This document shows positions 52,683 to 55,051 of a stretch of DNA of 64,000 bases, piece after piece. The DNA comes from Terasakiella sp. (GTDB taxonomy: Bacteria; Pseudomonadota; Alphaproteobacteria; Rhodospirillales; Terasakiellaceae). Below the pieces are notes generated by a model, which saw only the letters and a program-made list of their open reading frames with translations, was not told the DNA's origin and ran no database searches. The first letter of the stretch is position 1, and each line of letters begins with the position of its first letter. The position numbers and the translations under genes were made by a program. The stretch covers positions 101,966-165,965 of the forward strand of contig NZ_JBLWXN010000001.1 in NCBI RefSeq assembly GCF_048267425.1, given 5' to 3'.

Positions 52683-53708
52683 TTATTTCTTCAAGTGGTC
52701 ACGAACCAGAACTTCTGCGATTTGGACGGTGTTCAACGCAGCACCTTTGCGCAGGTTGTCGGACACACACCAGAAAGACAGACCGTTTTCAACAGTATCG
52801 TCTTTGCGGATACGAGAGACATAAGTCGCATCTTCACCCGCACATTCGACCTGAGTCACATAACCTTCGTCTTCGTGATGATCGACAACCACCAAGCCAT
52901 CTTGGGCCTGCATCACTTCACGTGCACGGGCAACATCAATCGGCTTTTTGGTTTCGATGTTGATATATTCAGCATGACCAATGAACGCAGGAACACGACA
53001 GCAGTTGGCGTGGACCTTGATATTCGGGTCGAGAATTTTTGCAGTCTCTACCTTCATTTTCCATTCTTCTTTGGTCGCGCCGTCATCCATAAAGACATCG
53101 ATATGCGGAATGCAGTTAAACGCGATTTGCTTGGTGAATTTCTTTTTGGTTTCAGACGCAGGCTTATTCATAAAGATGCCTTTTGTCTGTTCAAACAGTT
53201 CATCCATCGCATCTTTACCACCGCCGGAAACAGACTGGTAAGTGGAAACAATCACGCGCTCGATACCAAATTCTTCATGCAACGGCTTCAACGCAACCAT
53301 CATCTGAATGGTCGAGCAGTTCGGGTTCGCGATAATGCCTTTTTTCTTGTAATCCGCAATTGCTTCCGGGTTTACTTCAGGAACGATCAACGGAACATCC
53401 GGGTCCATACGGAAATGGGATGTATTATCCACAACAACTGCACCGGCTTCGGCTGCGCGCGGGGAATATTTCGCAGAAATTGCACCACCCGGTGAAGACA
53501 GAACAATGTCGGTCCCGGTGAAGTCAAACGTATCCAGATCCTGAACTTTCAGGATTTGGTCTTCCCCGTAAGAAATTTCACGACCGACCGAACGACGAGA
53601 CGCCAGCGCGACAACTTCGTCTGCCGGAAAATTACGTTCTGCCATAATCTGGAGCATTTCACGGCCTACATTGCCGGTGGCGCCCATAACTGCAACTTTA
53701 TAACCCAT
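52683..53708 (-). CDS. asd: Aspartate-semialdehyde dehydrogenase
   Basis: VAVMGATGNVG, VVDNTSHFRM, ANPNCST, YQSVSGGG, DNLRKGAALNTVQIAE. Confidence 0.98.
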   Translation of the reverse strand: MGYKVAVMGATGNVGREMLQIMAERNFPADEVVALASRRSVGREISYGEDQILKVQDLDTFDFTGTDIVLSSPGGAISAKYSPRAAEAGAVVVDNTSHFRMDPDVPLIVPEVNPEAIADYKKKGIIANPNCSTIQMMVALKPLHEEFGIERVIVSTYQSVSGGGKDAMDELFEQTKGIFMNKPASETKKKFTKQIAFNCIPHIDVFMDDGATKEEWKMKVETAKILDPNIKVHANCCRVPAFIGHAEYINIETKKPIDVARAREVMQAQDGLVVVDHHEDEGYVTQVECAGEDATYVSRIRKDDTVENGLSFWCVSDNLRKGAALNTVQIAEVLVRDHLKK

Positions 53709-53779
53709 CTTGCTTTCCTTTGTATTGTGGCCCAGTGGTGTCTTCCGCCTGTTCCATTTCCCGATTGATGTTGCACATA

Positions 53780-53824
53780 CGAAAAAAGGCCCGAAGCGGT
53801 AATCCCCGCGAGGGCCTTTTTTCG
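53780..53824 (-). terminator. Attenuator terminator upstream of asd
   Basis: Perfect 13-bp inverted repeat cgaaaaaaggccc/gggccttttttcg with inner gcgg/ccgc stem; U6 tract on the asd strand. Confidence 0.88.
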
Positions 53825-53854
53825 AATATACGATCCGTTTTCAGTCCCCGCAGG

Positions 53855-53980
53855 CTACGCTTTAGTCGTCGTAGTCGTCTTGGTTTTCGTGAAGCCGGTG
53901 AAGAGCGTGCATGCAACATCACCCGCAAAACCTTTTGCGGTGGTCTTTTTAACAGACATGATGTTTTGTGCGTTCAACAT
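53855..53980 (-). CDS. Thr/Lys-rich leader peptide of asd (not in ORF track)
   Basis: MLNAQNIMSVKKTTAKGFAGDVACTLFTGFTKTKTTTTTKA*; 11 Thr and 6 Lys of 41 codons; gaagag upstream; second in-frame ATG at 53959. Confidence 0.82.
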   Translation of the reverse strand: MLNAQNIMSVKKTTAKGFAGDVACTLFTGFTKTKTTTTTKA

Positions 53981-54012
53981 TTAAAGACACTCTTCAAAAA
54001 AATCGTGGCCCT

Positions 54013-54041
54013 TTCATACTGAAATTTACACCATTTGTCTA
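54013..54041 (-). promoter_or_regulatory. Promoter of the asd leader
   Basis: TAGACA-17-TATGAA; predicted start about 26 nt before the leader ATG. Confidence 0.65.
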
Positions 54042-54071
54042 GAGTCTGTTTTCGCAAATGCACAAAAGGGC

Positions 54072-54704
54072 CTAAACGTTTTGATCGTTTGTTCGCATTT
54101 CAGCAAGCGCGCGCGTCACAATTTGTGCAGCCCCCCACAAGCCGAGACCTGCAATTCCCAAACCAACAACGATATCCGGCCAACCTGTTTGAGAGGCCCA
54201 AACACCAGCACCGGCCAGCATAACCGCAATATTGCCAATGGCATCGTTGCGTGAACAAATCCAGATAGACTGGCGGTTGGCATCACCGCTGCGATGTCGA
54301 AACAAAAGCAAGGCCACAACAACATTGGTGATTAACGCCATAAAGCCGATAATGCCCATTACTTCAGCCCGCGGGACAGTGCCGTTTATGATATGGGAAA
54401 CCGATACAAACAAAACATAAGCCCCGACCATGCCCATGCAAACACCTTTAAACAATGCGGCTTTGGACCTGGCTTGCAAGCTCATGCCCAACACAATCAA
54501 GGTAATGGCATAATTCGCCCCGTCAGAGAAAAAGTCCACCGCATCCGCTGTCAACGCCAGAGAATTTCCCATTGCCCCGGCGATGATTTCAATAAAGAAC
54601 ATCCCCAAATTAACCACCAGCGAAAACCATAGAATCCGGCGATATGTTTTATCAACAACGGGCGCGTCCTGAGAAGAACAACAACTGGAACATCCGGCAC
54701 TCAT
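54072..54704 (-). CDS. Cation diffusion facilitator lacking the cytosolic C-terminal domain
   Basis: Cys-rich N-terminus GCSSCCSS, SLALTADAVDFFSD, WICSRND, WPD; ends soon after the last TM. Confidence 0.8.
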   Translation of the reverse strand: MSAGCSSCCSSQDAPVVDKTYRRILWFSLVVNLGMFFIEIIAGAMGNSLALTADAVDFFSDGANYAITLIVLGMSLQARSKAALFKGVCMGMVGAYVLFVSVSHIINGTVPRAEVMGIIGFMALITNVVVALLLFRHRSGDANRQSIWICSRNDAIGNIAVMLAGAGVWASQTGWPDIVVGLGIAGLGLWGAAQIVTRALAEMRTNDQNV

Positions 54705-55000
54705 AACTCTTCTTCCTCATGGACGTGATCAATCATATCTTTCAAGGTGCAACTGATATGGGCATCATGGGCCTTGTAAAAGACTTGCCGACCCGCACGA
54801 CGCGGGCGCACCAAACGCGCGCCACGCAACAGGCGCAAATGGTGAGACACCAGAGATTGCGACGCTTGGGTAATTGCCACAATATCACCAACCGACTTTT
54901 CTTCTTCCATACAGGAAATCAAAATTGCCAAACGGGTTGGATCACCCAGCAGTTTAAAAACTTCGGACAGTTCAATAAGCTGGTCTTGTTCAATTTTCAT
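54701..55000 (-). CDS. ArsR/SmtB family metal-responsive repressor
   Basis: FKLLGDPTRLAIL, SQSLVSHHLRLLR, alpha5-like DAH..x..DHVHE; SD ggag, start ATG 55000. Confidence 0.92.
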   Translation of the reverse strand: MKIEQDQLIELSEVFKLLGDPTRLAILISCMEEEKSVGDIVAITQASQSLVSHHLRLLRGARLVRPRRAGRQVFYKAHDAHISCTLKDMIDHVHEEEEL

Positions 55001-55017
55001 ATCAATAACTCCAATTA

Positions 55018-55051
55018 ATGAATATGTATTCATATGTTTGAGCTATGTCAA
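55018..55051 (-). promoter_or_regulatory. ArsR-CDF promoter with SmtB-type operator
   Basis: TTGACA-17-TACATA; palindrome ATGAATA-N2-TATTCAT (55018-33) over the -10. Confidence 0.75.

Follow-up and report, generated by a model that had tools for sequence, protein, structure and literature searches.

How does a Terasakiella cell set the expression of asd, the gene for aspartate-semialdehyde dehydrogenase? The product of Asd is the last intermediate shared by the branches that lead to lysine and diaminopimelate (DAP) and to threonine, methionine, and isoleucine, and the enzyme is indispensable for the cell wall. To our knowledge, regulation of asd in alphaproteobacteria is essentially undescribed. 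We analyzed a stretch of 64,000 nucleotides (nt) from Terasakiella sp. (contig NZ_JBLWXN010000001.1, positions 101,966 to 165,965; hereafter, the window), in which asd is preceded by a short open reading frame (ORF) rich in threonine and lysine codons and by a terminator-like hairpin. An earlier note, made by a model from the letters of this stretch alone, had proposed that this leader controls asd through ribosome stalling, reading Thr-tRNA and possibly Lys-tRNA. Our results support that proposal: the conservation of the leader next to asd, the position and covariation of an antiterminator, and the codon signature of the ORF make it likely that the leader is a ribosome-mediated transcription attenuator, tuned to charged tRNA-Thr and, probably, tRNA-Lys.

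All elements of the locus lie on the minus strand of the window (Table 1). The ORF of 41 codons with 11 Thr and 6 Lys and the tail TKTKTTTTTKA, the strong GC-rich terminator with its U6 tract, and asd about 70 nt further on were all found where the earlier note had placed them. The asd ATG at 53708 lies 73 nt past the U tract, and the product carries both semialdehyde dehydrogenase Pfam domains. Two hairpins described in the same note, ctacg/cgtag over the Thr run and stop and ccgcaaaa/ttttgcgg inside the leader, are present as well, the latter as CCGCAAA/UUUGCGG. The first is found in the minimum-free-energy (MFE) fold, and its arms co-vary in the genus, where CAACA/UGUUG and CAACC/GGUUG also occur, with 2 pairs altered on both sides. 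Like attenuators of the trp, thr, his, and leu type, the locus has a short ORF with a ribosome-binding site, a cluster of codons for end products, an intrinsic terminator, and an exclusive antiterminator, the 5' strand of which would be covered by a ribosome at the stop.

Table 1. Features of the asd leader locus, listed in the direction of transcription; positions are those of the window.
Feature	Position	Strand	Details
-35-like hexamer TAGACA	54041-54036	minus	T[AGT]GACA, position-invariant in 10 genus sequences
-10-like hexamer TATGAA	54018-54013	minus	17-nt spacer from -35; block CAGTA[TA]G[AT]A kept in genus
Shine-Dalgarno (SD)-like GAAGAG	53995-53990	minus	within element 53996-53987 (UGAAGAGUGU), which doubles as 5' strand of long-range stem with 53908-53899 (ACGCUCUUCA)
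Leader ORF	53980-53855	minus	41 codons and UAG; peptide MLNAQNIMSVKKTTAKGFAGDVACTLFTGFTKTKTTTTTKA, 11 Thr and 6 Lys
Nested hairpins within ORF	53965-53899	minus	AACAUCAUG../..GUGAUGUU, CCGCAAA/UUUGCGG, and outer GCA/UGC stem with 3' strand of SD stem
Hairpin CCGCAAA/UUUGCGG	53940-53923	minus	one compensatory C-G to U-A change in genus
Putative regulatory codon run TKTKTTTTTK	53890-53861	minus	codons 31-40; 10 of 10 Thr/Lys
Match to covariance model R1	53778-53887	minus	G000:C1:155743-155852; 88.2 bits, E 5.6e-21
"1:2" hairpin CUACG-N10-CGUAG	53874-53855	minus	arms 53874-53870 and 53859-53855; includes stop UAG 53857-53855
Antiterminator 5' strand CCUGCGGGG	53854-53846	minus	begins at first base past stop codon
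Intrinsic terminator	53831-53782	minus	core 53816-53788; U6 53787-53782; upstream A tract 53822-53817 able to lengthen stem
Antiterminator 3' strand CCUCGCGGG	53813-53805	minus	most of terminator 5' arm
asd	52683-53708	minus	aspartate-semialdehyde dehydrogenase, 341 aa; PF01118 and PF02774

For the terminator hairpin (core GGCCC..GCGG-GGAUUA-CCGC..GGGCC), including three A:U pairs, the calculated energy is approximately -20 kcal/mol, and for the whole downstream fold with its extended stem, approximately -35 to -39 kcal/mol. As CCUCGCGGG makes up most of the terminator 5' arm, the antiterminator and the terminator are mutually exclusive. This exclusivity was followed in MFE folds of transcripts masked through 12 nt downstream of a given A-site codon. 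With a ribosome stalled at codons 31-38 (TKTKTTTT), CCUGCGGGG and CCUCGCGGG pair over 9 bp, at about -20 kcal/mol including a small internal hairpin. Once the ribosome has moved to codons 39-41 or to the UAG, CCUGCGGGG is covered and the terminator alone remains. The earlier note had drawn the antiterminator as gcg-ta-gcct at the stop pairing with aggc-cct-cgc in the terminator; the register favored by the comparative data, CCUGCGGGG/CCUCGCGGG directly after the stop, overlaps that pairing but is shifted relative to it.

From these elements, we infer that the leader is translated in this organism, that ribosomes stall within its run, and that the outcome responds to each of the 2 amino acids. 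Transcription would start approximately 20-25 nt upstream of the leader ATG, and a ribosome would translate the 41 codons behind the polymerase. When Thr and Lys are plentiful, this ribosome would reach the UAG and cover CCUGCGGGG, the terminator (53816-53782) would form, and transcription would stop before asd. When Thr-tRNA or Lys-tRNA is scarce, the ribosome would stall on codons 31-38, the free CCUGCGGGG would pair with CCUCGCGGG, and the polymerase would read on into asd. If this mechanism is correct, changing CCUGCGGGG to CCUGCCCGG should give constitutive termination, which a compensating change at 53813-53805 should rescue.

Conservation was followed at several distances. In an alignment of 10 sequences of the genus (A2; 75% mean column identity), the leader ATG is invariant, the ORF is free of indels despite a divergence of about 25%, and a GGAG-like motif lies 5-15 nt 5' of the ATG. 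Thr and Lys codons interchange and vary at their third positions in this alignment, and the run remains Thr/Lys. In 2 species of the genus, the stop has mutated from TAG to TTG, and the ORF now ends at a new stop beyond the antiterminator strand, an arrangement that still fits the attenuator model. A first survey covered the asd loci of 30 genomes, 10 from the genus and 20 from other families. A short ORF with a Thr/Lys tail, followed by a terminator, was found 5' of asd at 10 of 10 genus loci and at 11-12 of the 20 others; over the genus as a whole, 11 of 11 genomes have this layout immediately before asd. Outside the genus, the leader peptides are unrelated apart from the run (ending, for example, in TGTTKTTTKTTTKTGGG, IETKTKTKTTTR, or SATTTTKTKTTTPR).

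A covariance model spanning the Thr/Lys run through the terminator (R1) was scanned over 201 genomes of the order at E<1e-6 and gave full-length matches in 83 of them. By coordinate comparison, approximately 80 of these matches precede asd in the same orientation, at a distance of 20-170 nt, and the genes further upstream of the leader differ among lineages. ORF, antiterminator, and terminator are conserved beside asd in about 40% of the genomes of the order. One of the 83 matches (G162) was rejected as a false positive, consisting of the 3' end of a gene and a terminator, and most of the weaker matches away from asd, being A/C-rich gene 3' ends with terminators, were likewise rejected as leaders; 2 of the weaker matches are real leaders of another kind. 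One genome of the order, G052, has 2 copies of asd (G052:C51:792-1955 and G052:C1:237622-238802), each preceded by a Thr/Lys leader (R1 E 3.8e-11 and 3.8e-8). An intrinsic terminator was found at 21 of the 24 loci assigned to the terminator class, the other 3 having a weak U tract, and its form, ..CGAAAAGGCCCGCGG..CCGCGGGCCUUUUCG.., is kept across families. With its flanks included (CGUAUAUUCGAAAAAAGGCCC ... GGGCCUUUUUUCGUAUGUG), the terminator region in the window (53774-53831) comes close to a palindrome, which makes it terminator-like on both strands, and the flanks CGAAAAGG/CCUUUUCG are conserved across families.

These comparisons bear on a different explanation, in which ORF and terminator together form a small-protein gene that is independent of asd. 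A promoter of its own, within the 73-nt gap, would then serve asd, and the adjacency would have no regulatory meaning. In the genus, the peptide is indeed well conserved over its N-terminal half (NIMSVKKTTAKxFAGDVACTL), and SEP5, a small ORF of Sinorhizobium meliloti to which we return below, accumulates as a tagged protein (PMC10117765). However, the conserved N-terminal half is encoded where the RNA folds into hairpins with compensatory changes, and outside the genus it is the Thr/Lys run alone that is conserved, not the peptide. In addition, the ORF adjoins asd in approximately 80 genomes even though its upstream neighbors change, and its stop codon stands in a fixed relation to the strand complementary to the terminator. 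The stretch between terminator and asd, finally, is poorly conserved and indel-rich in the genus alignment, and a consensus scan of this region returned no promoter-like match. We therefore regard an unrelated small-protein gene as very improbable.

The position and pairing of the antiterminator also speak for attenuation. Its 5' strand begins 0 to 16 nt past the stop, or lies within the ORF where the stop has moved downstream, at all 24 terminator-class loci. Across these loci, the pairing is stronger than in shuffled sequences (median z -2.1; Fisher p 5e-11 over the independent lineages among the 24). In a further alignment (A3), the core antiterminator helix is 85.4% paired, compared to 77.5% in shuffles, and its covariation score is 0.30, compared to 0.17; none of 500 shuffles reached either value. 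Double-sided changes are seen in 3 of the 6 core pairs, and sliding the register lowers the score in every case. Covariation between the antiterminator and the terminator is thus good support, though not proof, for the proposed switch.

A structured leader could also point to an RNA switch that binds a protein or a ligand in the manner of a riboswitch, with the ORF being incidental. In line with this, the leader region is more stable than all 100 of its shuffles (z = -3.4) and carries conserved hairpins. Searches against Rfam do not favor such a switch, however. No family reaches its gathering threshold anywhere in the window, and the lysine riboswitch (RF00168) has no match within 53400-54400 even at E up to 10. 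The only family with any hit to the region, Thr_leader (RF00506), scores 20.3 bits (E 0.4) against a gathering score of 55, so that the locus is not a member; a weak mirror-image match to the same family on the plus strand reflects the symmetry of A tract and U tract in the terminator. Moreover, what persists across families is the Thr/Lys run and the geometry of stop and antiterminator, the conserved hairpins being confined to the genus, and a switch of this type would leave the frame-specific codon bias without explanation. We regard this explanation, too, as very improbable.

Scanned in six frames, the 3.8-Mb genome gave approximately 5.3 million stop-free windows of 10 residues. Only 16 of them contain at least 9 Thr/Lys residues out of 10, and 10 out of 10 is reached at just 2 loci. 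The second of these, C1:512736 (L126, about 937), lies outside the window, in a gap of about 600 nt that is flanked by a tRNA gene and by the end of a convergent ORF of 678 aa; one of its frames reads KTTTTTTTTT. It was rejected as a leader: it is a low-complexity (ACA/ACC)n repeat next to the tRNA gene, with no start codon and no downstream gene, and may be the remnant of an integration site. For these reasons, the asd leader is unique in its own genome. Over the runs of 41 loci, we counted 253 ACN codons, 121 AAR (Lys) codons, and 2 AAY (Asn) codons, bearing in mind that choosing windows rich in Thr/Lys biases this count somewhat. Asn accounts for only 2 of the approximately 95 codons in these runs that are neither Thr nor Lys. 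Since third positions after AC are mostly pyrimidines, a stretch that was merely rich in A and C should hold many AAC codons, and the AAR/AAY signature thus points to translation of the run, as far as codon statistics can speak to this. Per run, there are approximately 6 Thr and 3 Lys codons and almost no Met or Ile, equally so in the terminator class and in the Hyphomicrobiales-type class described below. Six of the 7 Thr codons in the run of the window are ACG or ACT, the 2 least used Thr codons of the genome; we gave this bias no weight, because it is not retained in relatives.

Whether the Lys codons are themselves read is a separate matter. In a Thr-only attenuator, tRNA-Thr alone would be sensed, and the Lys codons would be neutral spacers that arise from ACN by a single C-to-A change. 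This would agree with the roughly 2:1 excess of Thr over Lys codons, with the free exchange of the two at homologous positions within the genus, and with one leader (L029) that has a single Lys; lysine is, moreover, usually sensed by riboswitches or through feedback. Against it, every one of the 41 leaders has at least 1 Lys, with a mean of 3.0 in both classes, and AAY codons for Asn, which are also a single step away, are nearly absent (2, versus 121 AAR). Asd, moreover, feeds the lysine branch. A comparison is offered by a locus of the same order (L112; G103:C15:74300-76230, minus strand), where the leader MFVTTTTTTTTTTTSGGP, with 11 Thr and no Lys, is followed by a terminator (GGACCCUCC...GGAGGGUUUUUU) and lies directly upstream of thrS; the downstream gene encodes a threonyl-tRNA synthetase with TGS, tRNA_SAD, and class II core domains. 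By its layout, this is a probable leader-peptide attenuator of an alphaproteobacterial thrS. Since that leader contains Thr codons without any Lys, we lean towards dual sensing of Thr and Lys at asd, and consider sensing of Thr alone unlikely.

In another lineage, the codon content of the leader appears to have been rewired. At L122 (G100:C5:421000-423620, minus strand), a terminator homologous to that of the asd leader follows an ORF in which Val, Thr, Leu, and Ile codons abound in place of Thr/Lys (ending in LAVVVLTVVTLITKQVHARA). Next come genes for a GNAT acetyltransferase and a membrane protein, with asd after them.

Several points weigh against attenuation as described here, or against parts of it. 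At single loci, the p-values for the antiterminator are modest, ranging from 0.003 to 0.27. Several of the sequences in the covariation test are closely related, and the controls remove this relatedness incompletely. The Lys codons may simply be tolerated in an A-rich run, without acting as sensors. Since the "1:2" hairpin borders the antiterminator strand but leaves it uncovered, an untranslated leader is predicted to read through, unlike in trp; this prediction comes from MFE folds only and is tentative. In addition, a consensus promoter scan of the leader region did not call the hexamer pair, the last base of the -10 element being an A. Set beside these points are the sequence elements themselves, their exclusivity in the folding calculations, their conservation and co-variation, and the fixed adjacency to asd, all of which were shown in this analysis.

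The promoter proposed in the earlier note, TAGACA-17-TATGAA, fared accordingly: both hexamers and their spacing are present and constant across the genus alignment, while the spacer sequence varies, and the consensus scanner makes no call. We assign it to the leader tentatively, through its conservation in the genus. Upstream of it, an ArsR-family regulator (110 aa) and a short cation-efflux (CDF) protein (210 aa) are encoded at 54072-55033 on the minus strand, with a 4-nt overlap at the start of the CDF gene. This pair ends at 54072, 31 nt before TAGACA, and as there is no terminator between the pair and the leader, read-through transcription into the leader is possible. The next gene downstream of asd is convergent, which makes asd the sole gene of the regulated unit.

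The 5' part of the leader holds further structure. The ribosome-binding motif (UGAAGAGUGU) pairs over 10 bp with ACGCUCUUCA in codons 25-28, and relatives have compensating versions of this stem (GGAGUUAC:GUAACUCU, GGAGCGU:ACGCUCC, and GGAG.AGUGC:GCAC.CUCC). The nested hairpins within the ORF are all retained in the genus, with a few compensatory changes. One may conjecture that the SD stem and the nested hairpins serve as a pause site, sequester the SD motif, or limit translation of the leader to an early ribosome or a single round.

The asd leader shares some features with known attenuators and differs from them in others. As in E. coli thrL, a leader peptide with regulatory codons and alternative antiterminator and terminator structures precedes a biosynthetic target of the aspartate family. 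However, thrL has 21 codons, senses Thr and Ile, and controls thrABC, while the asd leader has 41 codons with Thr and Lys, essentially no Ile, and extra 5' hairpins. The trp attenuator of E. coli shares the small 1:2 hairpin over the last codons and the stop, and the principle that the antiterminator strand (segment 2) is hidden under a ribosome that has reached the stop and is freed by stalling further upstream; the asd leader differs from it in that the 1:2 hairpin abuts the antiterminator strand, and in having 2 regulatory amino acids.

The earlier note had known of no described example for alphaproteobacterial asd, which is not quite true. Hadjeras et al. (2023, Microlife, PMC10117765) reported SEP5, a small ORF (sORF) of 39 aa (MRPKGSSIAALNLPAHHAGPISHFSLARKTTAKTTTKTV) that S. 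meliloti carries between SM2011_c04408 and c04410. Ribosome profiling (Ribo-seq) and western blot demonstrated that SEP5 is translated, the tagged protein being detectable, and the authors suggested that it is a leader peptide (PMC10117765). They called the downstream gene "aspartate dehydrogenase" and considered SEP5 conserved only in Sinorhizobium (PMC10117765). In S. psoraleae, however, the same tail (SKTTAKTTTKTV) lies 117 nt before asd, and therefore the gene following SEP5 is asd, and the conservation extends far wider than stated. Like the leader in the window, SEP5 lies in the 5' untranslated region (5'-UTR) of asd and carries a Thr/Lys cluster at its 3' end (RKTTAKTTTKTV), with approximately 6 Thr and 3 Lys. 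The 2 peptides are unrelated outside the run, and SEP5 has the Rhizobiaceae-type platform without a terminator, while the window has one. No RNA mechanism, terminator, or antiterminator is described for SEP5 in that paper (PMC10117765), and the sentence on SEP5 was the only mention found in a full-text literature search for Thr/Lys leaders of asd. The asd leader represents an uncatalogued family, absent from Rfam, with what is probably a textbook mechanism and a new pairing of input (Thr and Lys) and target (asd), partly anticipated by SEP5.

The distribution of such leaders was followed further in a wider sample of 80 named alphaproteobacterial asd loci. In this sample, a Thr/Lys leader is present in Sinorhizobium, Pseudorhizobium, Rhizobium, Shinella, Mesorhizobium, Allomesorhizobium, and Chelativorans, and also in Bosea, Chthonobacter, Pseudovibrio, Roseibium, Thalassobaculum, and Dongiaceae. 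It is absent from the sampled asd loci of Bradyrhizobium, Methylobacterium, Sphingomonadales, and Rhodobacterales. At 15 of 17 asd loci of the Hyphomicrobiales type, no intrinsic terminator was found. Leaders of this type (L037-L108) have a conserved CCCCGG/CCGGGG hairpin and a long-range CUCUCC...GGAGAG pairing near the ribosome-binding site or start of asd. Their platform appears to be different and possibly exerts translational control rather than termination, judging from these pairings. An attractive though tentative proposal, which we would put at slightly below even chances, is that the asd leader is an old alphaproteobacterial branch-point sensor of Thr and Lys in a ratio of approximately 2:1, with a terminator platform here and a platform that probably sequesters the ribosome-binding site in Hyphomicrobiales. 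If so, a single leader-peptide input module would have been reused with exchangeable output modules, in an uncatalogued cis-regulatory family that spans much of the class.

If the leader indeed reads Thr and Lys codons, it would provide simple, multivalent control at the branch point of the aspartate family. Defining the family would improve genome annotation, in which the small ORF is usually left uncalled, and would offer a model for attenuation by 2 amino acids, while accounting for a translated small ORF known from ribosome profiling. As the mechanism is a textbook one and not new in principle, the gain would lie in coverage and in physiology.

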